NCBI GenBank assembly: GCA_043819155.1
Contig: JBDRFC010000070.1
Span: forward strand, 1-45,399
Length of the DNA: 45,399 bases
From: Chloroflexota bacterium
Lineage (GTDB): Bacteria > Chloroflexota > Dehalococcoidia > Dehalococcoidales > G020351185
Reading direction: 5' to 3'
The translations under genes were made by a program, and so were the position numbers. Below the pieces are notes generated by a model. That model was not told the origin of the DNA. It worked only from the letters and a program-made list of their open reading frames with translations, and ran no database searches. Position 1 is the first letter of the stretch. Every line of letters begins with the position of its first letter. This document shows, piece after piece, positions 301 to 42,869 of this stretch.

Positions 301-1710
301 ATGAAGAGTGATTTCTTACTGGCTATAACACAACTGGCGGCAGAGAAGAATCTGCCCCGGGATGTAGTGCTCGGTGCAGTAGAATCTGCGCTGGTATCGG
401 CTTATCGTAAAAATAGTTTCATGCCTGCGCAGAATATCTCTGTAAAAATTGACCCGTCAAGCGGCAAGGTTGAAGTTTGGGCGGAGAAGACAGTGGTTGA
501 TAAAGTCTCAGACCCCCGCTGTGAGATATCGCTGCCCGAGGCGCTTAAAATCAATGCTGATTCACAGCTTGATGATGTCATTAATATTAAAGATACACCC
601 CACAATGCCGGGCGCATTGCCGCCCAGACAGCCAAACAGGTTATTCTACAGCGGCTCCACGAAGCAGAGCACAGTGCCATTTTCGAAGAATATACCGATA
701 AAGAAGGGGAGATTATAACCGGTGTTGTAAGGCGTATCGAAACACGCCAGATATTTATAGACCTGGGCAGGACAGAGGCTATAATGCCGGCGGCAGAACA
801 GGCTCCTAATGAAAGGTATCACGTCGGCCAAAGGTTAAAGGTTTACCTTCTAGAAATAGCCCAGTCAGCCAAAGGGCCTTTACTTATTGTTTCACGCTCC
901 CACCCAAACCTTCTACGCCGGCTCTTCGAGCTTGAGGTACCCGAAATCTTCAACGGCACTGTAGAGATAAAGGTAGTGGCTCGGGAGGCTGGTTTTCGCA
1001 GCAAGGTTGCCGTAGCGGCACGCCAGGAGGGCATTGATCCTGTTGGCTGCTGTGTCGGTCTGCGTGGCATCAGGATACAGAATATTGTCAATGAATTGAA
1101 CGGCGAAAAGATAGACGTCATCAACTGGAACACAGACATCGCTGTTTTCATGGCAAATGCTCTCAGTCCGGCCAGGATAACAGGTGTTACCATAAATGAA
1201 AAGGAAAAAGCGGCTACCGTTATTATTCCGGACAAACAGCTTTCCTTGGCCATTGGCAAGGAGGGACAGAATGTAAGGCTGGCGGTCAAACTAACCGGCT
1301 GGCGAATAGATATCAAGGGTGCTTCTGAAGCTGAGGAAGAAAGGTTGAAAGCAGCCGGAGAAGAGGGTGAAGACATCGATGTTGCCGTTGGGGAGCTTGC
1401 TGGTGAAGGACCGGAAACAGGTGAAGAAGCTCCTGTTCTGGCAGAGGTTTCGGGAAAGCTGGATGATACCGCAAAAGCTCCCGAAAGTGAATTCAAGCTG
1501 CCATTTTACCTTAGAGCACCAGAGTTAAAAACGGCAAAGAAAGAGTTACGATTTGCCGAGGAAATAATAACAGCGGCGCCCCCTAAAGCCGGATCTAAAA
1601 CAAAAAAGAGGAAGTCATCCAAGAAAAAGGGGACCGCCGAGGATGGCATACGCTTAAAGAAACAGCAACGGGGCCATGAAGTCTATGGTAGTGATGAAGA
1701 CGAATATTAA
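301..1710 (+). CDS. nusA: transcription termination/antitermination factor NusA
   Basis: GRIAAQTAKQVI, S1 and KH domains, SLAIGKEGQNVRLA; low-complexity C-terminal tail. Confidence 0.98.
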   Translation: MKSDFLLAITQLAAEKNLPRDVVLGAVESALVSAYRKNSFMPAQNISVKIDPSSGKVEVWAEKTVVDKVSDPRCEISLPEALKINADSQLDDVINIKDTPHNAGRIAAQTAKQVILQRLHEAEHSAIFEEYTDKEGEIITGVVRRIETRQIFIDLGRTEAIMPAAEQAPNERYHVGQRLKVYLLEIAQSAKGPLLIVSRSHPNLLRRLFELEVPEIFNGTVEIKVVAREAGFRSKVAVAARQEGIDPVGCCVGLRGIRIQNIVNELNGEKIDVINWNTDIAVFMANALSPARITGVTINEKEKAATVIIPDKQLSLAIGKEGQNVRLAVKLTGWRIDIKGASEAEEERLKAAGEEGEDIDVAVGELAGEGPETGEEAPVLAEVSGKLDDTAKAPESEFKLPFYLRAPELKTAKKELRFAEEIITAAPPKAGSKTKKRKSSKKKGTAEDGIRLKKQQRGHEVYGSDEDEY

Positions 1711-1981
1711 TAAGCACATCCCTTTGCGTACCTGTATCGCCTGCCGCGATATTAAAAATAAGCGTGAGCTAATTCGCTTAGTACGTAATACCGATGGTAG
1801 TATACAGATAGATACCAGCGGTAAAAAGCCGGGGCGGGGTGCTTATCTATGTCATGTGCCGGAATGCTGGCAGAACGCATTAAAAAGCGGTCGTCTGGAA
1901 CATACCCTTAAAACCGATATCGCCCAGGAGAATCGGGGGCAACTTGCCGAATACGGAAATAGCTTAAGCGGGGATTATTAA
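1676..1981 (+). CDS. ylxR: YlxR/RnpM (DUF448) RNA-binding protein
   Basis: PLRTCIAC and GRGAYLC motifs; lies between nusA and infB; true start may be slightly downstream. Confidence 0.93.
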   Translation: MKSMVVMKTNINKHIPLRTCIACRDIKNKRELIRLVRNTDGSIQIDTSGKKPGRGAYLCHVPECWQNALKSGRLEHTLKTDIAQENRGQLAEYGNSLSGDY

Positions 1982-3811
1982 ATGGTTAGAGCAAATAAAC
2001 GCAGTAATAGCGAACCACTGCCACAGGCGCCTGATAGCGGTTCATCTTCAACTGAAGTGAAATCTATTAAACTTCCACATACCATGAGCGTCAGGCAGCT
2101 GGCTGAATCTCTCAATGTTGGCTTTGTCGATGTTATAAAGCAGCTTATGAAAATTGACATCATGGCCAATATAAACCAGGTTATTGACTATGACGCAGCG
2201 TCACTGGTAGCCTCCAATTTCGGCTATAAAGCCCAACTTCAGGCACAGTCAGCCAGCAAAGCGGCCAGTGTCATCAGCGAGATTAAAAAGCAGCAGCTTC
2301 TGGCTGAAGAGAAGGGCAACCTGAAACCCCGCCCGCCGGTAATAACTATCATGGGACATGTTGACCACGGTAAAACAAGGCTGCTGGATGCCATCAGGCA
2401 AACGAATGTTATGGACACGGAATCCGGTGGTATCACCCAGCATATTGGTGCCTACCAGGTAGAGGTTAACGGTCAGAAGATTACCTTCCTTGATACGCCG
2501 GGGCATGAAGCCTTTACCGCCATGCGGGCTCGTGGAGCCCGGGTTACAGACATCACGATACTGGTAGTAGCCGCCGATGATGGTGTAAAACCACAGACAC
2601 TAGAAGCTATAGACCACGCCAAAGCAGCCGGTGTGCCTATCGTGGTGGCCATCAACAAAATAGACAAACCTAACGCCAACCCGGATGTTGCCAAGCAACA
2701 ACTTGCTGATGCGGGTCTCGTTATTGAAGAGTGGGGTGGCGATGTAATCTGCGTACTAACTTCAGCCAAGGCAAAGGAAGGTATTGATATACTGCTTGAA
2801 AACCTGCTTCTGGTAGCCGAAATGGAAAACCTGATGGCCGACCCGTCGAAACCGGCAAAGGGCGTGGTTATTGAAGCTGAAATGGACAAGACCAAAGGAC
2901 CACTGGCTACAGTTCTTGTCCATGACGGCACCCTAAAACCCGGTGATTCGGTGGTAGTCGGCACTACCTGGGGGCGGATTAAGGCAATGTTTAATGATGC
3001 CGGCAAACAGGTTAGGAGGGCAAAGCCATCGACGCCGGTTGTTGTTCTCGGCTTGCATAATGTTCCCCAGGTAGGGGATACATTAACCGCCGTAACCGGT
3101 GAACGTCGGGCAAAAGAACTGGCGGAAAAAAGAAAACAGGAAGATGAAGCAGCGCCGAAAGCGGTCAGCCTTACAAATATCTTTGACCAGGTAAGCGCCG
3201 GCCGGGTTAAGGAGCTTAATATAATTGTCAAAGCAGATGTCCAGGGCAGCATCGAACCAATAAAGGATTCGCTGCAGAGGCTGAGTACAGACGAAGTGCA
3301 GGTCAACCTTGTTCATATCGGCAGCGGTAATGTTACCGAAAGCGATGTCATGCTGGCTATTGCCTCAAAGGGTCTGATTATCGCTTTTAATACAGGTGCC
3401 GAAGCCGGCGCCACGCACCTGGCTGAAACCGAAAGTGTAGACATCCGCAACTACAATGTTATTTACGACCTGGTAGGCGATGTTGAAAAAGCCCTTAAGG
3501 GTATGCTCGAACCTGAGTATGTCGAGGTTATTGATGGCCGGGCGGAGGTAAGGGCTTTATTCCCCAGCAGTAAAAAGAGAAGCGCAGCCGGCATCTATGT
3601 CACCGAAGGCAAAGTGAGCCGAAGTGCATCGGTAAGGATTCTGCGCAACAAAAAGATTTTGGCTGAATCTGTGGTCGCCAACCTGAAGCGCTTCAAGGAT
3701 GATGTTAAAGAAGTAGCTACCGGCTATGAGTGCGGTATTATGGTTAAGAACTACAATGATTTTCAGGTTGGCGATATACTTGAGTTCTTCAGCCGTCAAA
3801 AATCCGGCTAG
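1982..3811 (+). CDS. infB: translation initiation factor IF-2
   Basis: [20 protein letters not shown] motifs. Confidence 0.99.
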
Positions 3812-3820
3812 GAGAATAGT

Positions 3821-4177
3821 ATGGTTTTTCGTATAGAACGGGTGAATCATCTCATCCGCCAGGAAATAAGCGATCTGCTAAGGCTCGAAGTAAAAGACCC
3901 CAGGCTCAGCGGTCTTGTCTCTATCACCGAAGTGGAAACATCTGCCGATCTGAAATATGCCAAGGTCTTTTTTAGCTGTCTATGCGACAATGAGGAAAAG
4001 AAAGAGATATTAAGTACGCTGGTTGCTGCTTCGGGTTTTCTGCATAATGAGCTGGCAAAACGCTTGACTCTGCGCCATATACCTGAACTCGACTTTCGCT
4101 GGGATGATTCCATTGAAAAAGGGGCTCGTATTCTGGAGCTCATAAACAAAGTGGCACAAAATGGAGAGCAAAGCTGA
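3821..4177 (+). CDS. rbfA: ribosome-binding factor A
   Basis: RIERVN...KDPRL...LRHIPEL.F..D.S; operon position. Confidence 0.97.
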   Translation: MVFRIERVNHLIRQEISDLLRLEVKDPRLSGLVSITEVETSADLKYAKVFFSCLCDNEEKKEILSTLVAASGFLHNELAKRLTLRHIPELDFRWDDSIEKGARILELINKVAQNGEQS

Positions 4178-4179
4178 TT

Positions 4180-5070
4180 ATGGATGGCATCTTTAATATT
4201 AATAAACCACCGGGCAATACCTCATTTAGCATCGTATCTATTGTCAGGCGGCTGACCGGTGAGCGCCGGGTTGGTCATGCCGGCACTCTTGACCCGATGG
4301 CCAGTGGTGTCTTGCCAGTCTGCTTAGGTAGGGGCACGAGGATTGTCGAGTTTCTGCTGGAGGACAGTAAGGTATATCGGGCACAGATAGAACTCGGTGT
4401 TGCCACAGATACCCACGACGCCAGCGGCAGTATTACCATTCGTGGTGATTCTTCAACTATAAAATTGGAACGGCTAGAGCAGGCGCTTAACTCGTTCCGC
4501 GGTTTAATACAGCAGGTGCCGCCGATGTTCAGCGCTTTAAAATACAAGGGCAAGCGTCTTTATAACCTCGCCAGAGAGGGTATTACCATAAAGCGTGAAA
4601 GCCGAGCTGCCACAATCTATCGTCTTGAGCTATTGGATTTTAAAACACCTTTTGTTTCGCTTGAAATAGAATGCAGTCGCGGTACTTATATACGCTCACT
4701 GGCTTATGACCTAGGTGAGCTTCTGGGTTGCGGTGCCCACCTAAAGGAACTGGTTCGCCTCAGTTATGGACCCTTTGATATAAAGGCAGCCGTTTCACCG
4801 AATCAGCTTGAGGATGCTTTTTCCAATAACAACTGGCAACAATTTTTATATCCTATAGATACTGTGTTAAGTAACTGGTCGGCGGTGGTTGTCGGTGATA
4901 AGCAGGAGCAGGTTATAAAAAACGGTGGCTGTGTATCCATGGAGAATAGCCAGGCAGCAGATGTTAATGAAAGAAGATGCCGTGCTTATAACCAGAACGG
5001 CTGTTTTCTGGCAGTGCTATACTTCAATACCGAGAGAGGACAATGGCAACCGGAAAAGGTATTCGTTTAA
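4180..5070 (+). CDS. truB: tRNA pseudouridine(55) synthase
   Basis: GHAGTLDPMASGVL, QVPPMFSA, GTYIRSL. Confidence 0.98.
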   Translation: MDGIFNINKPPGNTSFSIVSIVRRLTGERRVGHAGTLDPMASGVLPVCLGRGTRIVEFLLEDSKVYRAQIELGVATDTHDASGSITIRGDSSTIKLERLEQALNSFRGLIQQVPPMFSALKYKGKRLYNLAREGITIKRESRAATIYRLELLDFKTPFVSLEIECSRGTYIRSLAYDLGELLGCGAHLKELVRLSYGPFDIKAAVSPNQLEDAFSNNNWQQFLYPIDTVLSNWSAVVVGDKQEQVIKNGGCVSMENSQAADVNERRCRAYNQNGCFLAVLYFNTERGQWQPEKVFV

Positions 5071-5151
5071 CCACTTTTAGGTTTAAGCTCTTGACAACCT
5101 GCCTATAAAATAGATATAGTTCAGACAGTGTTCAGGAGGAGGTAGAGGATT

Positions 5152-5292
5152 TTGGAAGCTTATTGTTTAAAATGCCGCACAAAGAGGGATATAAAGAATC
5201 CTCAGCGGGTTACCCTTAAGAATGGCAGACCAGCCACACAGGGCGTCTGCCCCGTATGCGGCACTAAAGTATTCAGGATAGGAAATAGCTAA
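5152..5292 (+). CDS. DUF5679-like small zinc-ribbon protein (46 aa)
   Basis: TTG start after AGGAGG; MEAYCLKCRTKRDIKNPQRVTLKNGRPATQGVCPVCGTKVFRIGNS has two CxxC; TTGACA at 5091 and TATAGT at 5115. Below the ORF-track length cutoff. Confidence 0.85.
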   Translation: MEAYCLKCRTKRDIKNPQRVTLKNGRPATQGVCPVCGTKVFRIGNS

Positions 5293-5429
5293 TCATACAA
5301 AAAATACATCTTATCTTTGACTAACAGCCAGTCAATAGTATAATGCGTGTTCTGGCTGGTCTGACAAGTTGTTATTAATTACAGGAAAGCCTGCAGTATA
5401 ATTCTGTTTTACTGGAAAGGGGTATAAAA

Positions 5430-25321: not shown

Positions 25322-25465
25322 TAGAGGGGGTCAGAGGAAGCTCCGGCTGGGAGATTGTTATAATTTGTCATCATAACCTCCTACCGAAGATATTCAATTG
25401 CTATCAGTCTAATATCTAGGGGGAGAGTTGTCAATAGGCTTTAAATCTACGATCAATCTGTTATG

Positions 25466-25519
25466 AGAGTATCCGACTTTTAATCAGGGTGTCACAGGTT
25501 CGAGACCTGTACGGCCTAC
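25466..25519 (+). mobile_element. degenerate 3' portion of tRNA-Lys(TTT), att core candidate
   Basis: AGAGTATCCGACTTTTAATCAGGGTGTCACAGGTTCGAGACCTGTACGGCCTAC; 5' acceptor strand and CCA missing. Confidence 0.75.
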
Positions 25520-25538
25520 TTCGTAAATCCTCCTTTTC

Positions 25539-25559
25539 TGCTAACATTTTGCTAACATT
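25539..25559. repeat. tandem TGCTAACATT repeat (integrase arm-type site candidate)
   Basis: Two exact 10-mers with 11 bp period, 20 bp from the tRNA-Lys fragment. Confidence 0.6.
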
Positions 25560-26667
25560 GGTGTCTAACTTTCTGTTCTTGTCATTATTTACCTCAAATA
25601 TAATATCAAACTTGTCCGATGCTTCTTCTTGCAGCCCGGACAAGACGTGGCTGTAGATATCAAGAGTAATGCTAATGCTAGCATGGCCCAAGCGCTCAGA
25701 AACAATCTTTGGATGGACACCCTCCTTAAACAATAAAGTTGCATGGGTATGCCTCAGGTCGTGGATTCGGATATTTTTAAGGCCTGCTTTCTTGGTTATC
25801 CGCCGGAAAGCTAACGTTAAAGCGTTAGGATTAATCGGGTTGCCGTCATGTCTTATAAAAACAAAATCATCAGGTTCTAAACTAACACCAAGCTGTATCC
25901 TTAAAAGTTCCTGGTCGCTGCGATAGCTTTTTAACAATTCAACTAAGGAACGAGGCAGAGTAACAGTGCGCCTGCTGTGGCGTGTCTTCGGTTCTTTGAT
26001 AATGTAGTCGCCGTTACCAAGCTTATAAGCTGTTTCCATGACTACCAGCCTGGCTTCTTCTAGGTCCAGATTACGCCATCTTAAAGCAAGTCCTTCGCCA
26101 CGTCTGAGGCCAGTACAAAGCAGAGTGGCAAAATAGACGTAGTAATCCGTTTCCTTAGCAGCATCGAGAAACCTTACTATTTCTTCAGGTGATAAAGTAT
26201 TCATAGTTATTCTTTGTATCTTGGGCGGCTGGACAACATCGGCTATATTTCTTACTACCATGCCCATCTTAACGGCATAATCAAGAGCTTTGGACAGTAT
26301 CCGATGGTGATACACCACGCTTCTGGCAGAGAGGCCTTCTTTACCGTCGATTCTGCCATTGCTTATCTTCTCTGAGTAGTAGCTCTGTATGTGTTGAGGC
26401 TGTAAATCAGCAAGCGCTATCCTGCCAAGAGTTGGTATCATACCCTTTACCCTGTTCACCGCTTTGTTAGCGGCAAGGGTGATGGCTTAAGTAAATCATA
26501 TCATGGGAGGTAGTAAATTATGGTTTTTTTATATCCTCATCTCTACCGGTCAGATAGTCAGACTGGTCAGATAAAAAAGATAATAAATAATGAAAACTCA
26601 TCGTAAACACAGTGTAATCAATGTTAATAATATCACTTGTATATAAGGCAATAAATATAAAAGGAGC

Positions 26668-28487: not shown

Positions 28488-29489
28488 CTACTTTTTGTCG
28501 TTAATTGCCTGCAACAATGATTGACCTAATTGGTTAACCATTTCAGAATCATAATGCTCTATATTACCCTCATCGCAAAGCCGAGCAAGTTGTGGATCTA
28601 TGGGGAGTTGCCCCAGTAATGGAACGCCGATTGAACTGGCTATCTCCTCTCCACGGCTTTTGCCAAAAATGTCAATCTTCTTATCGATTTCAGGTACATA
28701 CAAATAACTCATATTCTCGAATATACCAAGGATGCGCTTTTCCATATTCCGGGTCATATTCACTGCTTTTCTAACAATCATTTCAACGAGAATTTGAGGT
28801 GTGAATACAATTACTACCCCCGAAATTGGGAATGATTGCATTAGCGTAAGCGGTGCATCGGCAGTACCCGGCGGCAGGTCAACAATAAGATAGTCAAGCT
28901 TGCCCCAGAGCACATCTTCACCAAATTGCTGGATGGCCTTCCCAATTAGCGGACCCCTCCAGACAACAGCGTCATCCTCGTTTTCTAAAATAAGATTAAT
29001 GGACATTACTTCAATCCCTGACTTCGACATTACCGGTAATATACAGCCATCGTTGCCGCCCGGTTGAACCTTGAGGCCGAACATTTTGGGTATACTCGGG
29101 CCGGTAATATCGGCATCCAGAATGCCTACTTCAAAACCCTGACGTTTTAAGGCAACTGCAATAAGGCCGGATACTAAAGACTTCCCTACTCCCCCCTTGC
29201 CGCTCATTATGGCAACAATGTGATCTATCTTATTCAGGTCTTTTGCCTTAGCATCCACATATTCTACCTTTACCTCTTTAACATCGGGTATTTTTTCGAT
29301 AGCTTCTTTTACTTCACTCTCAATCCAGATCTGTGCTGCCGGTATCAGCCCTGTTGATGCTAAAGTAACATTCACTATTCCATCGTCTGTATTAACCTCA
29401 CGTACCAGATTCAAACCAACGATACTACGTTTTGCAGCAGGCACCAGTACGTTTTCCAGGCTTTCTTTTACTTGCTCTTCAGTTATCAT
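28488..29489 (-). CDS. Mrp/NBP35 (ApbC-like) ATPase with N-terminal DUF59 domain
   Basis: SGKGGVGKS, DADITGPS, WRGP, DLPPGT, ENMS. Confidence 0.93.
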   Translation of the reverse strand: MITEEQVKESLENVLVPAAKRSIVGLNLVREVNTDDGIVNVTLASTGLIPAAQIWIESEVKEAIEKIPDVKEVKVEYVDAKAKDLNKIDHIVAIMSGKGGVGKSLVSGLIAVALKRQGFEVGILDADITGPSIPKMFGLKVQPGGNDGCILPVMSKSGIEVMSINLILENEDDAVVWRGPLIGKAIQQFGEDVLWGKLDYLIVDLPPGTADAPLTLMQSFPISGVVIVFTPQILVEMIVRKAVNMTRNMEKRILGIFENMSYLYVPEIDKKIDIFGKSRGEEIASSIGVPLLGQLPIDPQLARLCDEGNIEHYDSEMVNQLGQSLLQAINDKK

Positions 29490-29621
29490 AAAATGCTCTC
29501 CAATTCCTCCTATTATTGATTTCAGATATTTCCATGTTGCCTTTCATCGAACCGTTTTTATCTTTTCAGATATAATTTTACCTCCTGTCGATATGATGCT
29601 AAGTTATAAAAGTAGCGTTAT

Positions 29622-30020
29622 CTAGTGTAGCCTTTGCATAAGATTGGGGAGCTTACCCACTAAATAAAGCTTTGCTGCTTCGTCGATATTCTTGACATCG
29701 GTGACTACCACATCTATATTTTGGTTTTTTAAACTTTCATAAGCACCCAGGCCCATACCTCCAGCAATAATAGCCGCACAGTCTGAAACTGTTTCAATCA
29801 TACTCTTATGCTTGATATGTGCATCCGCACCATAACCATGATGGCATTCATGAGCCGATTCAGGATTTGGTTGTTCATTGGCATTATGGTGCACTATCTT
29901 AGGCCGTGTCTCTTTACATATAACTTTGCCATCTTCAACTTTGATTATAACGTAATATAATGCCCTTCCAAAATGCTGGCTAATTGAAGTTTCGTCATCA
30001 GATACAACTGCAATTCTCAT
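29622..30020 (-). CDS. NifB/NifX-family metal-cluster-binding protein, His-rich
   Basis: MRIAV...ISQHFGRA...GGMG.GA. Confidence 0.88.
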   Translation of the reverse strand: MRIAVVSDDETSISQHFGRALYYVIIKVEDGKVICKETRPKIVHHNANEQPNPESAHECHHGYGADAHIKHKSMIETVSDCAAIIAGGMGLGAYESLKNQNIDVVVTDVKNIDEAAKLYLVGKLPNLMQRLH

Positions 30021-30023
30021 TAT

Positions 30024-30362
30024 TTACTCCTCTTTTTTATTAATTTTACTTTCCCCCACAAGTTTGCACGCATTCAACTCGAAATTGCCACCCCCTATCC
30101 TTATGGCTTTACCATTAAGCAAGGCGTCAGCAATTTTCTTCCTTGACGTTGATAACACTCTTTGAAAGGTTGACCTTGAGATTCGCATCCTTTCAGCACA
30201 CTGCTCCTGCTCCAGTCCTTCTAAATCTTTTAAACGAATCGCCTCAATTTCCTCCACGGATAGGCCAACCTCTTTAAGAAATCTCAATGGTATACCAGCT
30301 GGTTTATAGTAAGATACATCAGGTAGAAACTCGACTCTACGATACTTTTTCTGTCTTGGCAT
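30024..30362 (-). CDS. DUF134 putative DNA-binding protein
   Basis: MPR.K.RRV...YKPAG...EAIRLKDLEGLEQEQCAERM.ISR.TFQR. Confidence 0.93.
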   Translation of the reverse strand: MPRQKKYRRVEFLPDVSYYKPAGIPLRFLKEVGLSVEEIEAIRLKDLEGLEQEQCAERMRISRSTFQRVLSTSRKKIADALLNGKAIRIGGGNFELNACKLVGESKINKKEE

Positions 30363-31869: not shown

Positions 31870-32739
31870 CTATCGAGAGATAACTTTTTTAACTGCTTCG
31901 GGTATATGTTTGATTAATTCTGCGATACCTGTTGCCGGCGTAGGATTGGCTAACTCACCCATGAACCTGTTAATCTGAGCCGCTTTTATGCAGGCATCAG
32001 CCGGTTCAAGTCCACTGTATATCAATGCCGACACTATACCTGTTATAGTGTCCCCCGTTCCACCTATCGCCTCAAGGGCTGGTACCAGAGGCTCTTTAAC
32101 TACTCCAACTACTTCACCATCAACAATAACATGGTCTATAGCAGCTTTAACTATCATATAACGTGGCGTATCTCCATGTTCGTAAGCTTCTTTGCTTAAC
32201 CTGGCGACATCAGTATTGTCAACCTCAAATATAAAATGCTGTACATATGCCGGATGTGCAGCATCCTGGTCTGCCAGGAAACTCAGTTCACCCGGGTCAG
32301 GGGTAAATAGATCAAACTTTTTACTCAGCCCGATAGCCTTAGCATTTAATAGAGCCCCGGCGTCAGCTATGAAAAACGGTTTTCTCTCCATATTTTCCAC
32401 TGTCTCTACCAGTTTTATAAATTGTTCCCTTGTTGGTAGTATATAGTGAATGGTAAGAACTTCAGGTTTCAGATTGACGACTTCATCATTTAAGAACTTG
32501 AACAATTTCAAGCTCCCTTCACCCATGCCGGTATCCCCAATAACCACAGCATGTGGTTCTTGGATATCAAGGGCTTGACACGTAGCCGACGCTGCCGAAA
32601 TCATAGCCGCAGTTCCGATGGTTACATATTCGCTTTCAAGGGTATAATCCCCTATAGTCAGCTTATCTCCATTATACTTACATGGTCCATATGTAAGAGG
32701 CATATCCTCAATCGGCATGGTACCAACCAAAAGAAGCAT
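31870..32739 (-). CDS. ribokinase-fold (NAD(P)HX dehydratase/sugar-kinase-like) protein, copy 2
   Basis: IADAG, FTPDPGEL.FLAD..A.HPAY, EAIGGTGDTITG; paralog of 34386-35267. Confidence 0.8.
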   Translation of the reverse strand: MLLLVGTMPIEDMPLTYGPCKYNGDKLTIGDYTLESEYVTIGTAAMISAASATCQALDIQEPHAVVIGDTGMGEGSLKLFKFLNDEVVNLKPEVLTIHYILPTREQFIKLVETVENMERKPFFIADAGALLNAKAIGLSKKFDLFTPDPGELSFLADQDAAHPAYVQHFIFEVDNTDVARLSKEAYEHGDTPRYMIVKAAIDHVIVDGEVVGVVKEPLVPALEAIGGTGDTITGIVSALIYSGLEPADACIKAAQINRFMGELANPTPATGIAELIKHIPEAVKKVISR

Positions 32740-32740
32740 T

Positions 32741-33292
32741 TTACTTACCCTTCCTTTCCTTCTTGAATAATTCTAAAGCTTTCAGATAGGCGTGCTCCAT
32801 AGTGTAGGCACATATAGTCTTCCCCAGCTCCCTAGGCTTGGGACCTTTACCAATTACGGTTCCTGTAAGTCTCAGACCGAGCCATGGTATATCCGGTCAG
32901 CCACCCCCTGAAATATTAACTATTGTACCGGTTCCCTTCTGGTATGTAATTTTCATATTGCCACATCGGACCATTGTATAATCAGGAAAGTCCGTTGTTT
33001 TAATCAATGTTGTTAGATATACGGGCACCAGCTTTGTATCTTTAGGCATAAATAATATATCCAGGATAAGCACATTTTTCTCATCCAGGATACGTTCCGC
33101 TTCATCGACTTCTGGCGCGCTAAGTTCAATTGCCAGGTCACAACCGGTTCTATATTCCGGCGGGGGCGCTACTTCCTTTATCTTTAGCCCGGCTTCCTCG
33201 AGTACGTGTTTAGCACGCAAGGCATGATAAATATAATCAAAAACAATTAGTGCTTTTTCTTCTTCCAGTGCTTCTTTCGCCAATTGGCTCAC
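32741..33292 (-). CDS. DUF3343-domain protein, probable selenoprotein (Sec at codon 132, UGA at 32897-32899), 183 aa
   Basis: NISGGG-TGA-PDIPWLGL...KPRELGKTICAYTME aligns with paralog NISGGG-C-PDIPYLNV...KPKDLGFTLCAVML; readthrough ends at TAA one nt before the next start. Confidence 0.88.
32866..32899 (-). promoter_or_regulatory. bacterial SECIS element candidate
   Basis: UGA-CCGGAUAUACCAUGG-CUC-GGUCU-GAG; GGUCU begins at +19 after UGA, the same offset as in the E. coli fdhF SECIS. Confidence 0.7.
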
Positions 33293-33552
33293 CTCCTCAC
33301 TTTTTTTAATTTGTCTTACTTTTATGAATTATTTTTTCTTATAATGGACATGTTTTTTAGTTCGCTTCAGTTTATTACCTAATATAAGGCCTGTCAATGA
33401 TATTACGGCTTTTTTTATTTTCCTTAAGTTTCTTAAATTAAAGAAGGGGCAAGGTATAATTCTTTAAAATTACTACCTCCCCCTCCGGTATATTTTTATT
33501 TTAGTGTTTTAGTCTTTATGTCAAGTCTACAACCCTATGTTTTCAGTATATA

Positions 33553-34146
33553 TTATATATTTATTACTTTTGGGCTATCAATTAATATATTTACTATTTC
33601 ATACATATTGCTTGCAACTCCCACCTTTAATTTATCCGTTAGTTCATAATATGCCAGGCAGGTACCACAAGATATTATATTAATCCCTTCTTTCTCTAAA
33701 AGTACCAGGGTTTCCAGAACCTCTGAACCTTCTGTGATTAGCTTCACTCCGTTATTAATAAAGATTATGCTATCTGGTTTTACTTCAGCTTCCCATATTG
33801 TATTCAGGAAAGCTTTAATCAATACCTCTCCTAGTCTTTTATCTCCTGTCCCCAACCTGTCACTTGTAATAAATATGACATATTTATCAGATACCTGTTC
33901 GTTCCGTTCATTTTGCGTCCGCCCGGCCTCATCTCCTTTAGTTATATCTACATAAAAACCGTCTTCTTTTTCTTTCGCCACAACCTGATAACCACTATTT
34001 TTGGCGAGACGCTTTATATTTTCAAAACTGGTCTTATTATCTACGATGACCGTAATCGTACCCGATTCAATCTCATCAAGCGCCTGTCTTGTATTCACAA
34101 CCGGCTTGGGGCACTCAAGGCCCCGGCAATCTATTTGCTTAACCAT
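33553..34146 (-). CDS. yedF: selenium metabolism protein YedF-like (TusA domain + DsrE-like domain)
   Basis: IDCRGLECPKPVV, G.GD..LG.VL.KAFL, NNGVKL, SCGTCL. Confidence 0.88.
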   Translation of the reverse strand: MVKQIDCRGLECPKPVVNTRQALDEIESGTITVIVDNKTSFENIKRLAKNSGYQVVAKEKEDGFYVDITKGDEAGRTQNERNEQVSDKYVIFITSDRLGTGDKRLGEVLIKAFLNTIWEAEVKPDSIIFINNGVKLITEGSEVLETLVLLEKEGINIISCGTCLAYYELTDKLKVGVASNMYEIVNILIDSPKVINI

Positions 34147-34155
34147 TTTAAGCTT

Positions 34156-34374
34156 TTATTTTCCGGGTGGGGTCAGTTTTATATGGAAATCGTCTCCCAC
34201 TTCCTCTATTTTTACATTATAGCCTTTACTTTGTGCCAGCCGGGATACGTTCTCTCTGGTAACGCTTGTCTCTGTAACAACACTTAATATTTCATTGGGA
34301 TTTTCTTCAATTGCTTTTTTTGTTCTAACAACCGGTATAGGGCAGGAAAAACCTCGTACATCGACTTCAATCAT
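34156..34374 (-). CDS. TusA/SirA-family carrier
   Basis: Start reassigned to 34374 (MIEVDVRGFSCPIPVV) after AAGGAGG. Confidence 0.92.
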   Translation of the reverse strand: MIEVDVRGFSCPIPVVRTKKAIEENPNEILSVVTETSVTRENVSRLAQSKGYNVKIEEVGDDFHIKLTPPGK

Positions 34375-34385
34375 TGTACTCCTCC

Positions 34386-35267
34386 TTATGTATAACAGAC
34401 TTCGCTCCACTTGCAAAGATACTCTTCAAATACCGCCGGGAACTGGTCAATTATCTGCCCGACCTTGGTCGCCGGTGTCGGTTTAGCATATTTGCCAGCC
34501 ATACGATTTGTTTTAGCAGCAATTACAGCCGCTTCTTTAGGTTTAAGCCCAGCATATACAAAAGCCGAGACAAGCCCGGTAATGGTATCGCCGGTGCCGC
34601 CAATAGCTTCAAGTGTTGGTACATCGGGTTCGTTTATGGTTTCCAGTATTTTTCCATCGCTGGCTATATAATCGGTCTTTCCTTTAACAAGAAGCAGCTT
34701 GGCTGCACTTCCATTATTAAAAGCAGCCTTAATTTGCTCTGGGATTTTACTGGAATCACAGTTAAAAAGATGTTCTGCGATATAAGCCGGGTGCGTAGCT
34801 TTAGGATCAGCAAGAAAGGCAATCTCTGAGGGGTCAGGTGTCAGAATATCAAATTCTGATGCCAACCCGGCTCCTTTAGCGGCATACATTGCACCGGCAT
34901 CGGCAATCATAAATGGCCGTTTTTTACTATTTTCAGCCGCCTTACATAGCTGCTTCATCAAAGCCATAATGGGTAAACAATAATGCATCACAAAAACATC
35001 CGGAGAAAGTTCATCTATATTATCTATAAGATATCTATAGAGTTCCCGGCTGCCTTTGCCATCACCGATATCCCCAACTACCAATACTTTTGGTGGCTCC
35101 AGTTTTAGATAATTAGTAGTTGTTAGTGCAGCGCTTATCATGGCGCCTGTTCCCTGGATTCGTGAAAAACGCCTGCCATCAGCCAACAAAAAGTCTCCTT
35201 CTAACTTAACCTGGCCTAAAGTCAAAGGCATATCTTTGTTTGGCACTGTACCTGCAATAAGCATCAT
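34386..35267 (-). CDS. ribokinase-fold (NAD(P)HX dehydratase/sugar-kinase-like) protein, copy 1
   Basis: IADAG, LTPDPSE, HPAY, KGKTD, EAIGGTGDTITG. Confidence 0.8.
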   Translation of the reverse strand: MMLIAGTVPNKDMPLTLGQVKLEGDFLLADGRRFSRIQGTGAMISAALTTTNYLKLEPPKVLVVGDIGDGKGSRELYRYLIDNIDELSPDVFVMHYCLPIMALMKQLCKAAENSKKRPFMIADAGAMYAAKGAGLASEFDILTPDPSEIAFLADPKATHPAYIAEHLFNCDSSKIPEQIKAAFNNGSAAKLLLVKGKTDYIASDGKILETINEPDVPTLEAIGGTGDTITGLVSAFVYAGLKPKEAAVIAAKTNRMAGKYAKPTPATKVGQIIDQFPAVFEEYLCKWSEVCYT

Positions 35268-35800
35268 TAGTTATTACCTCCGTTCCAGAGGTTAAGGCAC
35301 TCCTCCAGGGCTAAATCAAGCATTACGGCACATAGGGTAAAACCAAGATCTTTTGGCTTTGGTGCTTCAGTAAGCAATTTATCAACCAGTTCCACATTAA
35401 GGTAAGGAATATCGGGGCAGCCACCACCAGATATATTAACAATTATACCGCTGCCTTTATCAAAGGAAATCTTCATATTGCCCGCTTTAACCATGGTCCA
35501 CTGGCCGTAATCTGTAATCTTTACGATCTCACACATATCGGCAGTTCCTTTCATAAGGGGAAAGATACCAACAAAGGCAGCATCCTTCTCTTTCAATAAC
35601 CGCTCAATGCCGGCACTTTCTACAAGATTTATCTCCAGAGCCAGGTCACAGCCCATACGTAATTCTGGCGGCGGAGCGATTAGTTTAATTTCGTAATCAG
35701 CACCTTTTATAAGCTTTTCCGCTTCTATGGCGTGCGAAACTCCCTGGAAGATTACTATTCCATCACCTTTAAAAGCAATACCTTTCTTTTTAAACGCCAT
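35267..35800 (-). CDS. DUF3343-domain protein, Cys form
   Basis: AI.AEK...APPPELRMGCDLA, NISGGGCPD, GFTLCA. Confidence 0.85.
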   Translation of the reverse strand: MAFKKKGIAFKGDGIVIFQGVSHAIEAEKLIKGADYEIKLIAPPPELRMGCDLALEINLVESAGIERLLKEKDAAFVGIFPLMKGTADMCEIVKITDYGQWTMVKAGNMKISFDKGSGIIVNISGGGCPDIPYLNVELVDKLLTEAPKPKDLGFTLCAVMLDLALEECLNLWNGGNN

Positions 35801-35839
35801 TTATAAACCTCTATTACTTATTCTTTTCTTTTATTTCAA

Positions 35840-36955
35840 TTAAGCTTTCTGATGCATTAAGAAGCCGACTGTCAAACAGAAAGCAAGGCCCACAAACACT
35901 GCTATCACGGTATTAGCGCCTATACCACTCGGGCTTGAAGCCAGCAGGAAGTTATGGGAGAATGCCGCCCCTGCAATCAATCCCAGTATAAATACCCCGG
36001 CATCAGCATCTCCTTCACCCGCTATTATAAGATTACGCAATGGACAAGCGCCGGCAAAAATAAAAGCCATCCCTGCCAAGGACATACCAAGAAAGTTCCA
36101 TAAATGGTTATTGTGGGCTACCGGCTGGTTTTCAAATCCCCAGCTATAGATAATATCATTGCCGATTAAGGTTCCCTCGGCGAAATTACCAACTATATAG
36201 TTTGTAACTAAAGCACCGACTATTATTGCGATAATGCCACTTAAGAGATGCGTACTTCTGACCAGCATTACGTCACGCCAGGCACCAACGGTACAAAGTC
36301 TTGTCCTCTGGAATATAAAACCTACTGCCAGCCCAACGACGAGTGATACCGCAAGCGATGCATACATAGACCCGGGACCGCTCTCACTGGTATATATAAC
36401 ATCCAGACCCTTTGTTGTTTCAATAATGGCAAATATAAGTAATCCGACCAGAACAATTGGTATAATCAAGCCCACCAGATGATGCGTCTTGCCTGCCCTG
36501 CCCAAACTGAATCCCCTCTTCAGGAAGAAGACGGCTACCGCTATACCAACCAACAATCCGGCGAGGCCTGTAACAGCATTCAGGTCACCTCCACCGAGGC
36601 GGAGCAACAGGCGGACCGGGCAACCCAGAAACACAAGGGCGCCTATCATTGCGAAAGCGCCCAGGAAAAAACGTATTATTGGCGATGAGCCTCCCCTGGG
36701 GCGCCACTCACGGAAAGCTAATGCAGTTATGAAAGCCCCCAACCCAAAACCTATAATTTCAGGTCTTATATACTGCACCACTCCTGCCCTGTGTAAGCCT
36801 AGCGCTCCTGTAATATCCCGGATGAAGCAGGCAACACATGTGCCCATATTCCCCGGGTTACCCCAGTTCACCAGCAAAGCACCGAGGATTCCGAAGGCAA
36901 GTCCACCCAAGATGACCCATTTCTTCGGCTTGAAATATTCAATAATTGAATTCAT
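35840..36955 (-). CDS. yedE: YedE-family putative selenium transporter
   Basis: GNPGNMGTCVACFIRD..GALGLHRA.VVQY.RPEI, FLGCP.R, QRTRLC, GACPLR. Confidence 0.92.
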   Translation of the reverse strand: MNSIIEYFKPKKWVILGGLAFGILGALLVNWGNPGNMGTCVACFIRDITGALGLHRAGVVQYIRPEIIGFGLGAFITALAFREWRPRGGSSPIIRFFLGAFAMIGALVFLGCPVRLLLRLGGGDLNAVTGLAGLLVGIAVAVFFLKRGFSLGRAGKTHHLVGLIIPIVLVGLLIFAIIETTKGLDVIYTSESGPGSMYASLAVSLVVGLAVGFIFQRTRLCTVGAWRDVMLVRSTHLLSGIIAIIVGALVTNYIVGNFAEGTLIGNDIIYSWGFENQPVAHNNHLWNFLGMSLAGMAFIFAGACPLRNLIIAGEGDADAGVFILGLIAGAAFSHNFLLASSPSGIGANTVIAVFVGLAFCLTVGFLMHQKA

Positions 36956-37661: not shown

Positions 37662-38021
37662 ATGAAAGAACTGACAAGAGCTGTGCATGCCCTCTCCGAT
37701 GAAACGCGTGTCCGCATCATCAACCTTATCATGGAGCGTGAATGCTGTGTATGTGAGGTAATGCAGGCACTCAACATTTCGCAGACACGTGCCTCACGCA
37801 ACCTGAAGATTCTATATGACGCCGGCTTTCTCAATATGCGAAACGATGGTCTTTTTACACTGTATTCCATCAATTCTGAAAGTAATGACGATTTTTACGC
37901 CCACCTTCTGCAAGCAGTTAGAAAGGACCTGCAAACAAACACTACCGCACGTAAAGACTTGCGCCAACTCGCTAAAACCAAGCGAGTAAGACCTGGTTTT
38001 GCAAGCAGATTGGTGCAATAG
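37662..38021 (+). CDS. arsR: ArsR-family metalloid-sensing repressor
   Basis: ALSDETRVRI, ECCVCEV (alpha3 As-binding-type motif). Confidence 0.9.
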   Translation: MKELTRAVHALSDETRVRIINLIMERECCVCEVMQALNISQTRASRNLKILYDAGFLNMRNDGLFTLYSINSESNDDFYAHLLQAVRKDLQTNTTARKDLRQLAKTKRVRPGFASRLVQ

Positions 38022-39056
38022 ATGCCATTTGTTGTAGAGCTACTTCAGGGTGGCTGGGATGCCCTTCTTGAATACCTATCCTTTCATGTCCTTACCTGCC
38101 TTGTACCGGCCTTCTTCATCGCCGGAGCCATTGCCGTTTTTATATCTCAGGGGGCTATTCTCAAATACTTCGGCCCTAAAGCCAACAAATTCCTATCCTA
38201 CGGCGTCGCTTCGGTTTCTGGTACCGTTCTTGCCGTCTGCTCCTGCACCATATTGCCCCTTTTCGGCGGTATCTATAAAAGGGGGGCTGGCCTGGGACCA
38301 GCCATCGCTTTTCTGTATTCCGGCCCGGCTATCAATGTGCTGGCAATCATCTATTCCGCCCGTTTGCTGGGATACGATATCGGTCTGGCACGAGCTTTGG
38401 GAGCAATCGGCTTTGCTATAATAACCGGACTTATCATGGCATGGATATTCCATAAAGAAAAGACGACCGGTGACGAGCGTGCCTTCGCCAGTATGCCTCA
38501 GGACCCGTCAGATAAAAAGATGTGGCAACTGCTGCTGTTTTTCGGTTCCCTGATAGGTATACTTGTTTTTGCCGCCTCCAAAGAATGGATTTTGACCGGC
38601 GTTGCGTTTGCCCTTTTGTTTTTTGTGTTATGGCGCTGGTTTAGCCGTCAGGATATTATCCATTGGATGAAAGAGACATGGCATTTCTTCAAATTGATAT
38701 TACCCTGGTTACTTGGCGGCGTTTTTATCGCCGGTATACTTACAGTGCTTATCCCGGGTGATGTAGTGGCTGAATGGGTGGGTGGTAATAGCATTCAAGC
38801 CAACTCACTGGCGTCTGTTTCGGGTATGCTGATGTATTTTGCCACGCTAACGGAAGTGCCCATTATCCGCGCCTTTATGGATCTGGGTATGGGCAAGGGT
38901 CCTGCGCTGGCTTTGCTTCTGGCTGGCCCTGCCGTCTCATTACCCAGTATACTGGTGTTGAGAAAAATCATGGGCTGGCGTAAAACTCTTACTTATATAG
39001 TATTGGTAGTGATTATGGCCACCCTGACAGGTTTTATCTTCGGGCAAATAGTCTAA
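38022..39056 (+). CDS. ArsP-like (DUF318) permease
   Basis: CLVPAFFIAG, AVCSC, FLYSGPAIN, MYFATLTEVP. Confidence 0.9.
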   Translation: MPFVVELLQGGWDALLEYLSFHVLTCLVPAFFIAGAIAVFISQGAILKYFGPKANKFLSYGVASVSGTVLAVCSCTILPLFGGIYKRGAGLGPAIAFLYSGPAINVLAIIYSARLLGYDIGLARALGAIGFAIITGLIMAWIFHKEKTTGDERAFASMPQDPSDKKMWQLLLFFGSLIGILVFAASKEWILTGVAFALLFFVLWRWFSRQDIIHWMKETWHFFKLILPWLLGGVFIAGILTVLIPGDVVAEWVGGNSIQANSLASVSGMLMYFATLTEVPIIRAFMDLGMGKGPALALLLAGPAVSLPSILVLRKIMGWRKTLTYIVLVVIMATLTGFIFGQIV

Positions 39057-39072
39057 AACACTGGAGGAAAAA

Positions 39073-39331
39073 ATGAAAATAAAGGTTTTAGGTCCAGGCT
39101 GTGCCAAGTGTCACAAGCTGGGGCGAGTTGTAAGAGAGGTTGTTGATGAACTTAAGTTAGACGCCACAGTTGAAGATGTTGAGGACATAATGAAGATGCT
39201 AGAATACCCCATTCTGACCACACCGGGGCTGGTAATTGATGAAGAAGTAATCATTTCGGGGCAGGTCCCATCCAAAGAAAAAGGTAATAGAGTTGATTAA
39301 GAATGCTGCTGAAAAAGGAAAGGGCTCTTGA
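39073..39331 (+). CDS. small thioredoxin-like redox disulfide protein; probable 1-nt frameshift at A5 39278-39282
   Basis: MKIKVLGPGCAKC...TPGLVID; removing one A gives the helical end PSKEKVIELIKNAAEKGKGS. Confidence 0.85.
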
Positions 39332-39422
39332 GAAAGATATAACACCCAAATTTGTGCAGCATCATGGTTATATGACAGAGTTTGTTATAAAGTAAGAATA
39401 AATTCAATGTTTTTAGGAGGTT

Positions 39423-40100
39423 ATGAGGATTATGGGTGCAGTATATCAAGCACTAGGTCTGGGCCTGATGGGTGCTATCGCCCCCTGTATTATGGCGGCT
39501 AATATCGCTGCTTTAGCCTACATCAGCCGCAGGATGACTAGCCCGAAATATACTGTATTAGCTGGCACGCTATATACTTTGGGACGCATGGTTGCATATT
39601 CTATCATTGGTATCATTATCATTATAATTGGTCATGAAATACCCGGTGTTGAAGAATTTTTTGAGAAGGGTTATTTTGTCTTAGGACCGTTTCTTATTGT
39701 TGCAGGGCTGCTTATGCTATTTATTGATAAGCTTCCCTTTTTTCAAGGAGGTGGCAGACTAACTGCACTCGGAGGCAAGGTAGCTGGTTGGGGGAAAATA
39801 GGGCCGTTTCTCCTTGGTATTATTCTCGCCCTGGCCTTTTGTCCTTATAGCGCTCTTCTGTTCTTTGGGATATTGATGCCTTCGGCCCTTCAAGCTCCTG
39901 GTGGATTCATACTTCCAGCAGTGTTTGCCTTTAGCACCGGGCTACCCGTGCTGGTAGTTGGCATGCTTTTATCTTTTGGCATAACCAGGGTTTCTTCATG
40001 GGTCAATGCAATTACCCGTTCTGAGCGCATAATACGTATAATAATTTCCACCGTCTTTATTGGAGGAGGTATATATTATGTCTATTTGTGGTTAAGATAG
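39423..40100 (+). CDS. ArsG/CcdA(DsbD)-like membrane protein
   Basis: AIAPCIMAANIAA, YTLGR, LAFCPYSA. Confidence 0.85.
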   Translation: MRIMGAVYQALGLGLMGAIAPCIMAANIAALAYISRRMTSPKYTVLAGTLYTLGRMVAYSIIGIIIIIIGHEIPGVEEFFEKGYFVLGPFLIVAGLLMLFIDKLPFFQGGGRLTALGGKVAGWGKIGPFLLGIILALAFCPYSALLFFGILMPSALQAPGGFILPAVFAFSTGLPVLVVGMLLSFGITRVSSWVNAITRSERIIRIIISTVFIGGGIYYVYLWLR

Positions 40101-42311: not shown

Positions 42312-42314
42312 AAG

Positions 42315-42386
<72 letters not shown>

Positions 42387-42433
42387 GTTACATCGAATTC
42401 TATCACTTCCATAAAAGTGACTCAAGTTTTAGC

Positions 42434-42508
42434 TGGAGCGGGAGACGGGACTCGAACCCGCGACAACCTGCTTGGAAGGCAGGGACTCTACCACTGAGTT
42501 ACTCCCGC
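42434..42508 (-). tRNA. tRNA-Gly(TCC)
   Basis: GCGGGAGTAACTCAGTGGTAGAG...CCTTCCAAG...GGTTCGAGTCCCGTCTCCCGCTCCA. Confidence 0.96.
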
Positions 42509-42575
42509 AAAGCAAGAGCTATTTTAACCCTGACGTTTCTTTTTGTCAAAATAGAGACTATATAATGCAGGGGTC

Positions 42576-42657
42576 TGGGGAAGGGGGGATTTGAACCCCC
42601 ACGCCTTGCGGCACATGATCCTAAATCATGCTCGTCTGCCAATTCCGACACTCCCCC
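42576..42657 (-). tRNA. tRNA-Leu(TAG)
   Basis: GGGGGAGTGTCGGAATTGGCAGACG...TTTAGGA, long variable arm, GGTTCAAATCC. Confidence 0.95.
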
Positions 42658-42869
42658 AAATATACGGATAAAGGCAAAGCTAATCTAGGTTTATACTATA
42701 GCATTACTACTAAAGTATCTCAATATTATTGCTTGTGCCACCGGTAACAATTTTACGCTTTTTATGACGCTATGGGGTTGACGTTCTTATCTTACTAAGT
42801 ATAAAATGCCTTACAAAACACTTTTAATTTTTGGCTTAAGAAAACCCTTTTTATTAATAAGGAGGAGAT

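Follow-up and report, generated by a model that had tools for sequence, protein, structure and literature searches.

A predicted selenoprotein family hidden behind an in-frame UGA in Se_S_carrier (DUF3343)-DUF8182 genes of Dehalococcoidales

Introduction

In fdhF of E. coli, one of the described systems closest to the gene treated here, an in-frame UGA codon is followed by a stem-loop within the coding sequence, with the motif GGUCU at positions 22-26 (the U of UGA being position 1, as throughout this paper), and decoding of the codon needs selA, selB, selC and selD. Here we analyse a gene of similar layout in a 45,399-nucleotide (nt) stretch of DNA from a Chloroflexota bacterium of the order Dehalococcoidales (assembly GCA_043819155.1, contig JBDRFC010000070.1, positions 1 to 45,399), the whole of which is referred to below as the window. 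The gene lies at 32741..33292 on the minus strand, and its listed open reading frame (ORF) stops at a TGA which, as we argue, very probably encodes selenocysteine (Sec). A sequence-only reading of the window had proposed a hidden selenoprotein at this place, namely a DUF3343 protein with a UGA opposite the Cys of a paralog and an fdhF-like Sec insertion sequence (SECIS), lying among genes of selenium metabolism.

The model of the bacterial SECIS (bSECIS) places an apical loop of 3-9 nt, whose first two positions include a G, 16-37 nt downstream of the UGA, on an upper stem of 4-16 base pairs (bp) with an energy of -7.5 kcal/mol or lower (PMC13188914, Fig. 2 legend). On the protein side, DUF3343, with its conserved Cys, has been proposed to serve as a chaperone for selenium or sulfur (PMC5322559, Lin et al. 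2015); the accessible part of that paper describes these proteins as having 80-100 residues, a single domain and Cys only, and makes no mention of a Sec form. DUF3343 also appears among the genes that most often overlap selD, according to the accessible part of another source (bioRxiv 10.1101/2022.04.13.486033). Furthermore, several proteins of selenium and sulfur handling are themselves selenoproteins. SelD acts in selenium metabolism and has Sec and Cys forms according to lineage, and in DsrE-like, rhodanese-like and YeeE/YedE family selenoproteins (listed in the tables of PMC9312934 and PMC13188914) the active Cys of a protein that transfers chalcogens is exchanged for Sec. The route that selenium takes from uptake to SelD is described as unresolved in a 2026 review (PMC13188914).

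Results

The reading frame continues beyond the TGA

The listed minus-strand ORF (32897..33292) runs from GTG at 33292 to TGA at 32899..32897 and ends in ...IVNISGGG. When the TGA is read as a residue, 51 extra codons are added and the frame closes at TAA 32743..32741, one spacer base before the ATG (32739) of the next gene, kinA. The window also holds a paralog (35270-35800, minus strand) containing NISGGG-C-PDIPYL, with its Cys at the UGA column, and when only the 51 residues beyond the TGA are compared, they match the C-terminus of this paralog at 17 of 45 positions (E-value 3e-11), T-I/L-C-A included. The sequence-only reading had drawn attention to both the UGA/Cys pair and the continued homology, and both are borne out. 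It had further claimed that the extended ORF ends 1 nt before the next gene, which is correct, and that this mirrors the coupling of the paralog, which is only partly so: both genes are tightly coupled to the next gene, but the paralog shares one base between its stop and the start that follows (TAATG, 35269..35265, minus strand), and the two couplings are not identical.

The real start of the gene is probably TTG 33283, giving 180 residues, rather than GTG 33292, because a GGAGG (33296..33292) sits 8 nt upstream of this TTG and because the frames of orthologs begin at the equivalent Leu and are 180 residues long.

Residues 14-79 or 14-80 of both window paralogs match the Se_S_carrier domain (PF11823, formerly DUF3343). 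Apart from PF11823, the rest of the carrier protein had zero matches in NCBIfam or in the local Pfam copy, which holds no PF26554 model. The C-terminal region was assigned to DUF8182 through homologs of 65-93% identity, for which a precomputed database column gives PF26554, and the name DUF8182 comes from the ESM Atlas. The earlier description of the gene as a DUF3343 protein with a UGA therefore needs amending, for the DUF3343 domain is present but the Sec actually falls in the C-terminal DUF8182. This region is not a copy of DUF3343, since an hhalign comparison of the N-terminal with the C-terminal half gives a probability of 0.35%. A PDB sequence search with the carrier protein found nothing (best E-value 0.26), and an ESM Atlas lookup returned no model for the paralog or for the family sequence P0014, and hence no structural neighbours.

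The TGA column among relatives

We searched 201 genomes of the same order in all six frames, and 60 of them contain the family. In the subfamily of at least 67% identity, exactly one in-frame TGA is present at 15 places in 13 genomes and none at nine places; this count leaves out a Cys form interrupted by a run of N (genome G137, locus L040). All 15 TGA codons stand in the context SGG[GA]-U-PD[IV]P, the other nine sequences have TGC or TGT at the same column, and the TGA orthologs span six families of the order. The closest of them, in genome G120, is 92% identical over the whole protein. In a 37-row family alignment the column is an invariant Cys in the 36 other rows, and C51, the Sec/Cys column itself, P133, D134, P136, P153 and C161 are the invariant residues. 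Likewise, among the 120 best database matches, the column is Cys in all 60 longer (full-length) proteins. Together with ten more cases in a distant clade, described below, these counts answer for the recurrence of UGA at this column that the sequence-only reading implied.

Independent metagenome contigs were also found over the site; these derive from relatives rather than from raw reads of the sample itself, and among the best 40 of 130 rows none has a listed change at the TGA (32897-32899). Among the rows listed, 17 of 19 differences between 32744 and 32896 fall at third-codon positions. The same pattern is seen in the 15 TGA forms, where the 45 codons compared after the TGA contain 21, 12 and 42 variable columns at first, second and third positions, respectively, with 79% amino-acid identity and no in-frame stop seen. 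The ratio of nonsynonymous to synonymous change (dN/dS) is about 0.09 downstream of the TGA (crude NG86 estimate, 78 usable pairs of 105) and 0.07 upstream of it (25 usable pairs). By these measures the stretch of 45 codons behind the TGA evolves in the manner of coding sequence.

A conserved hairpin follows the TGA

The sequence CTC-GGTCT-GAG, at 32881..32871 on the minus strand, occurs a single time in the window, against 0.02 occurrences expected. Its GGUCU lies at positions 22-26, exactly where it lies in fdhF of E. coli K-12 (NC_000913.3), so that the fdhF-like placement claimed by the sequence-only reading is correct. The two genes differ in other respects, since their stem sequences and proteins are unrelated, no bulged U was seen here, and in our reading of the fdhF sequence its loop is GGUC closed by an A-U pair, as against a loop of 5 nt on a stem of 3-5 bp in the family of the TGA gene.

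The 15 TGA forms share one architecture, in which positions 17-21 pair with 27-31 around a loop at 22-26. Pairs 19-29, 20-28 and 21-27 do not vary in any of the 15, and the loop is GGUCU in 12 and AGUUU in three. Pair 18-30 is G-C in 12 sequences, U-A in two (genomes G103 and G080), where the change is compensatory, and G·A in the window. Of the third-codon positions in the 45 downstream codons, only 21, 24 and 27 are the same in every TGA form, and each of them belongs to the hairpin top; Cys forms vary at these three positions. The local energy is between 0 and -1.5 kcal/mol in all nine Cys forms, where the hairpin is missing, and among the orthologous TGA forms it is -8.2 or -8.6 kcal/mol in nine, -4.9 or -5.2 in three and -2.8 in two. 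In the consensus structure, which includes a possible lower stem, 97% of cells pair, compared with at most 45% when the partners are slid. The covariation score is above those of all 500 shuffles; the score is no probability, and the same sequences had served to derive the structure.

Measured against the bSECIS model, the window has the loop size, the position of the G and the spacing (18 nt between UGA and loop). A stem of at least four pairs is found in 14 of 14 orthologs, and 12 of the 14 reach the energy of the model. An Rfam search of the whole window at gathering score returned three tRNAs only. We also scanned the whole genome for a TGA followed by a 4-bp hairpin with a [AG]GU[CU]U loop; the three matches were unconvincing, and the site of the window was itself missed through its mismatch.

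A second Sec-bearing clade

The family extends well beyond the order. A scan of one genome per species gave at least 594 family loci, and the best 79 of these contain 80 instances of the motif, eight with TGA and 72 with Cys, in a scan whose first pattern demands Cys and which is consequently biased against TGA forms; all eight TGA instances are in Dehalococcoidia records (GTDB). Family members occur in records labelled Dehalococcoidia, Syntrophales and other Thermodesulfobacteriota, Nostoc, Calothrix, Moorella and Dethiobacter, and also Coriobacteriia, Bathyarchaeia and Nitrososphaerota. A profile search of 1.84 billion representative proteins gave 376 matches at E-values up to 0.001 and 133 at up to 1e-10.

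One protein from this profile search, P0164, ends at NISGGG. Its relatives in metagenome contigs form a second clade in which the Sec column is TGA in ten cases and TGC or TGT in 16 (loci L156 and L158-L162 do not reach the column and are left out of this count). The downstream frame is conserved in this clade (UPDIPYVAQQLHG...GNSLCSY), and a 14-nt block at positions 22-35 is invariant only in the TGA forms. At one locus, L157, on a metagenome contig, a TGC Cys form of the second clade retains the 14-nt block, which suggests a very recent Sec/Cys switch.

A quick maximum-likelihood tree was built from 121 distinct rows of 135, the 14 dropped rows being identical duplicates between two collections; rows with fewer than 100 residues before the Sec column or fewer than 35 after it were excluded. 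The two Sec-bearing clades are far apart on this tree, and the Sec/Cys label changes five times, at least two of these changes being forced by well-supported branches. Within the Dehalococcoidales clade the 12 Cys forms make up one subclade (support 99) inside a grade of 16 Sec forms.

Sec machinery and genetic code of the genome

The genome that contains the window (G000) amounts to 828 kb in 70 contigs and is 68% complete. It contains selA (555 bits), selB (385 bits), selD (373 bits) and tRNA-Sec (70.6 bits), for which ARAGORN gives the anticodon tca; this agrees with the sequence-only reading, which a lack of selABC would have refuted. The four genes are grouped on one contig, C32, at about 955-5394. 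SelB also scores above its cut-off in all 20 other genomes of the subfamily, 12 with TGA forms and eight with Cys forms only. TGA closes 74 of the 449 frames of at least 250 codons in this genome, and selA and selB have no internal TGA, from which we conclude that the genetic code is standard.

The selD gene itself contains one in-frame TGA, followed by a six-pair hairpin with the loop CGGGU at 20-24, a geometry similar to that of the gene studied here. Besides selD, no known selenoprotein family searched for in this 68%-complete genome was found with a TGA. A formate-dehydrogenase-like molybdopterin enzyme matching PF00384 (contig C23:5305-6561) has no in-frame TGA, and PF02662 and PF00578 were not found, which in a genome of this completeness does not show their absence. 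A codon-usage screen for further TGA-interrupted genes was too noisy to use, giving 261 candidates that were mostly antisense frames.

Gene neighbourhood and the kinase-like partner

The sequence-only reading had described the neighbours as selenium-metabolism genes, and the profile matches agree with it. A Cys module (33553..36955), with YedE, the Cys paralog, kinB, a TusA-like gene and YedF, is followed after a gap of 260 nt by a Sec module with the TGA gene, kinA and a split YedE, all on the minus strand (Table 1). The gap contains a promoter-like TTGACA-17 nt-TAAACT (33369..33397, minus strand), a consensus match only; given this site, the Sec module may be transcribed separately from the Cys module. 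Both types of module occur together elsewhere, since 10 of the 13 genomes with a TGA form also have the Cys-type paralog module, and we speculate that the Sec enzyme is backed by a selenium-independent Cys enzyme.

The kinase-like gene directly follows the carrier gene at 33 of 33 loci of the order and at 96 of 111 further loci, and 13 of the 15 exceptions end less than 400 nt past the gene. YedE, whole or split, stands in the flanks of most carrier-kinase loci. Furthermore, five representative proteins of 514-588 residues have Se_S_carrier, DUF8182 and Carb_kinase fused in one chain, and the C-terminal part of one of them, P0142, is 36% identical to the kinA product of the window over 293 residues (E-value 8e-59). 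To judge from this adjacency and fusion, the carrier and kinase-like genes very probably make one enzyme.

The partner genes match Carb_kinase at 43-49 bits, and their nearest solved relative in a profile search is the dehydratase domain of Nnr TM0922 (E-value 2.5e-7). Distant relatives are NAD(P)HX dehydratase (the YjeF C-terminal domain, Nnr; PDB 2ax3) and ThiM, from which the partner differs in scoring far below the equivalog cut-offs and in being adjacent to, or fused with, the carrier. With 39.7-43.8 bits (kinA 39.7) against the TIGR00196 cut-off of 129.85, the score of an NAD(P)HX dehydratase is not reached, for which reason we regard the partner as a separate ribokinase-fold family. The motifs G-G-T-G-D and T-P-D-P-G-E are invariant in 31 partner sequences, and they may correspond to the nucleotide-site motifs of the family. 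Partners of the kinB type (34386..35267 in the window; loci L037 and L041-L048) end in a Cys pair, C-x-W-S-x-x-C, which in the window reads ...CKWSEVCYT; kinA-type partners, which accompany Sec/Cys type-A carriers, have no such tail.

The two YedE halves of the Sec module overlap by 22 nt. Many loci, archaeal ones (Nitrososphaerota, Bathyarchaeia) among them, have YedE divided in this way behind the carrier-kinase pair, with the N-half first and the C-half second; the split YedE thus seems to be a stable transporter in two pieces and not a broken gene. Immediately past the downstream end of the selenium cluster (28488..30362, minus strand) are genes for a DUF134 helix-turn-helix protein, a NifX/Nitro_FeMo-Co-like protein and an Mrp/NUBPL-type iron-sulfur P-loop NTPase. 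Upstream of YedE and divergent from it (37662..40097, plus strand) lie genes for an ArsR-family regulator, an ArsP_1-type permease and a DsbD_2 membrane protein. A phage-integrase-family gene (25461..26459, minus strand) lies about 2 kb beyond the cluster, and a trio of tRNA genes, tRNA-Met, tRNA-Gly and tRNA-Leu, is found at 42314..42658 (minus strand).

Table 1. Position of the read-through gene, its parts and the genes around it in the window
Feature	Coordinates	Strand	Remark
Read-through gene, Se_S_carrier (DUF3343) + DUF8182 (predicted)	32741..33292	minus	183 aa from GTG 33292
In-frame UGA, putative Sec, residue 132	32897..32899	minus	aligned with invariant Cys
Apical SECIS-like hairpin, positions 17-31	32869..32883	minus	loop GGUCU 32878..32874
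Whole candidate SECIS, including possible lower stem (4-11 with 43-50)	32850..32896	minus	predicted; lower stem weakly supported
Se_S_carrier / DUF3343 domain, residues 14-79	33056..33253	minus	PF11823, 57.1 bits, cut-off 25
Invariant Cys51 in Se_S_carrier domain	33142..33140	minus	family alignment
C-terminal DUF8182 (PF26554) region, bounds approximate	32744..33040	minus	by homologs; holds SGGG-U-PD-I-P loop
Invariant Cys161 in DUF8182 region	32812..32810	minus	family alignment
kinA, ribokinase-fold (Carb_kinase / YjeF_C-like), 289 aa	31870..32739	minus	coupled to TGA gene
Split YedE, N-half, 168 aa	31282..31788	minus	downstream of kinA
Split YedE, C-half, 153 aa	30842..31303	minus	downstream of kinA
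YedE	35840..36955	minus	TIGR04112, 453 bits; Cys module
Cys paralog	35267..35800	minus	Cys module
kinB, Carb_kinase-like	34386..35267	minus	Cys module
TusA-like	34156..34416	minus	Cys module
YedF	33553..34146	minus	TIGR03527, 233 bits; Cys module

Discussion

These comparisons point strongly to a selenoprotein encoded at 32741..33292. We are confident that the UGA of this family encodes Sec, and hardly less so that, in the gene of the window, it would be decoded through SelB and Sec-tRNA(Sec) with the help of the hairpin; the relay and the kinase-unit function attached to this reading we infer. Our confidence in efficient decoding of the window's own copy is somewhat lower than that in Sec for the family, because its stem is weakened.

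Several observations weigh against this interpretation, most of them concerning the hairpin. That of the window has a local energy of -2.0 kcal/mol, the weakest of the 15, and its stem consists of three pairs, a G·A mismatch and then one pair. It is below the bSECIS model in both stem (3 bp) and energy (-4.9 kcal/mol with the hairpin enforced and -7.4 unconstrained). Furthermore, when the 50 nt that follow the UGA are folded, the structure of minimum energy (-7.4; z +0.85) excludes the hairpin, and 161 of 200 shuffles are at least as stable as these 50 nt. Across the family, z values against shuffles range from -2.04 to +0.85 in 12 TGA forms and from -0.57 to +0.75 in seven Cys forms, and are not significant. 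An Rfam scan of 32600-33000 at E-values up to 10 gave two chance matches and no SECIS family. The covariation rests on one pair with two compensated sequences, and the support for the hairpin is mostly invariance, which constraint on the encoded protein could partly explain. Beyond the hairpin, the relay, the partner and the use of ATP belong to the functional model rather than to the observations, and a search of sequencing runs for this stretch listed no RNA run; in the same search no run held half of the sampled words, the best sharing 0.31 and 0.22. On this balance the hairpin is supported by comparison and not by folding energy, and the fdhF-like SECIS of the sequence-only reading holds in the first sense, with the weakest copy of the 15 in the window, and fails in the second.

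The weakness of this hairpin is what gives substance to the idea that the family is genuinely Sec-containing while the window's copy inserts Sec poorly or is heading for loss, much of its product being a truncated protein of 131 residues. The shortfall in stem length and energy fits it, and so does the perfect five-pair stem of the closest ortholog, G120. We nevertheless consider it improbable. The loop and the three closing pairs are intact in the window, and the downstream frame is intact too, in a protein so close to that of G120 over its whole length. Moreover, position 30 is also A in two congeners, G103 and G080, where a U at 18 compensates for it, so that the hairpin of the window resembles a halfway state of the change from G-C to U-A that those two genomes have completed, and a contig from an independent metagenome run (X2) has no listed change at 32870. 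G·A mismatches within stems are often tolerated. If the downstream codons are translated but the residue is something other than Sec, the UGA would be read as ordinary Cys, Trp or Gly, either through suppression or because the code is altered. This has in its favour that the downstream frame is clearly translated and that Sec is deduced here from sequence and not from a selenium measurement, but it is highly improbable: the standard code of this genome speaks against it, as does a column that is Cys in all non-TGA relatives, the usual Sec signature. Only TGA forms keep a hairpin whose loop and distance are those of fdhF, and the Sec machinery is present in the genome itself, with SelB in the 12 other genomes that have TGA forms. 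Least credible of all is a true stop, either a nonsense mutation or the end of a naturally short protein, with the 51 downstream codons as an untranslated remnant. Gene callers and databases do all treat the TGA as a stop, and the hairpin is not marked out by folding energy; yet the TGA and the open frame behind it persist together in 15 orthologs from six families, where a remnant would decay. The conserved frame, the low dN/dS and the residues invariant beyond the TGA (P133, D134, P136, P153 and C161) are not what a nonsense mutation or an untranslated remnant could produce. The read-through stop also preserves the tight coupling to the next gene, and no in-frame start lies near enough after the TGA to make the conserved tail separately.

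If the UGA is decoded as Sec, as we prefer, the mechanism would be as follows. The UGA at 32899..32897 would be decoded by SelB and Sec-tRNA(Sec) with the guidance of a hairpin, which begins 14-16 nt past the codon and carries GGUCU at 22-26. The product, of about 180 residues, would have an N-terminal Se_S_carrier and a C-terminal DUF8182 with Sec132 in an S-G-G-G-[U/C]-P-D-[I/V]-P loop. Selenium (or sulfur) would be imported by YedE and held by the TusA-like YedF, from which Sec132, as the nucleophile of a chalcogen relay, might accept it, with Cys51 and Cys161 as possible relay or resolving thiols. The carrier and its ATP-binding, kinase-like partner would act as one unit, in which the partner may use nucleotide to process the bound species or a small-molecule acceptor. 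A bolder version, which we put forward tentatively and consider unlikely as it stands, is that the carrier-DUF8182 protein and its ribokinase-fold partner are an unrecognised ATP-dependent enzyme for the selenium or sulfur that YedE imports and YedF holds, with Sec or Cys132 as the catalytic nucleophile.

The protein shares with the DUF3343 proteins of PMC5322559 the PF11823 domain (57 bits) and the conserved Cys described there, and departs from the description in the accessible part of that paper in its extra DUF8182, which holds the putative Sec, and in its kinase-like partner gene. It is unrelated in fold and family to SelD (TIGR00476), where the ATP chemistry resides in one chain and not, as here, in a separate or fused ATP-binding partner. 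With the DsrE-like, rhodanese-like and YeeE/YedE selenoproteins it has in common the genomic theme of YedE, TusA and DsrE, and its sequence is unrelated to theirs. NCBIfam release 20 contains zero families matching the read-through protein at an E-value of 0.01 or less. PF11823, PF26554 and DUF3343 are missing from the 87-family table of 2022 (PMC9312934) and from the 119-family table of 2026 (PMC13188914), supplements aside. Neither a Sec form of DUF3343 nor DUF8182 appears in the accessible part of the deep-Sep paper; a term search of the accessible text of the Haft 2022 preprint found no Sec form and no DUF8182; and the same holds for the accessible part of the BSepDB paper, whose family list stands in a supplement outside that part. 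A full-text literature search found no paper with DUF8182 or PF26554, and the seven papers found to mention DUF3343, as far as their text is accessible, report no Sec form. We consider the family, on this evidence, to be a previously uncatalogued selenoprotein family that would use the ordinary bacterial Sec mechanism.

Public databases store these genes in truncated form. Among the 120 best database matches, 57 end at [ILV]SGG[GA], as stubs of 125-131 residues, and two end at NISGGM. The stubs are named 'DUF3343 domain-containing protein' or 'hypothetical protein', and the short form is found in NCBI, JGI, Tara, ENA and Logan records alike.

Conclusions

The gene of the window would add a selenoprotein family missed by catalogues and pipelines, and it exposes a systematic annotation error. 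The Sec/Cys switch, which arose at least twice, marks residue 132 as the probable working residue of DUF8182, a domain without known function, and the gene neighbourhoods define a testable four-part module in bacteria and archaea, consisting of YedE, a TusA-like protein or YedF, the carrier-DUF8182 protein and the kinase-like enzyme. If the carrier and kinase do form an ATP-dependent enzyme, this could supply the step of delivery or activation that is missing upstream of SelD, or could stand at the beginning of a further route of selenium utilisation; keeping both a Sec and a Cys module in one genome would then make selenium uptake respond to selenium supply. As selD is the sole other Sec gene found in this genome, the gene studied here may be one of the few reasons why this lineage keeps its Sec machinery.

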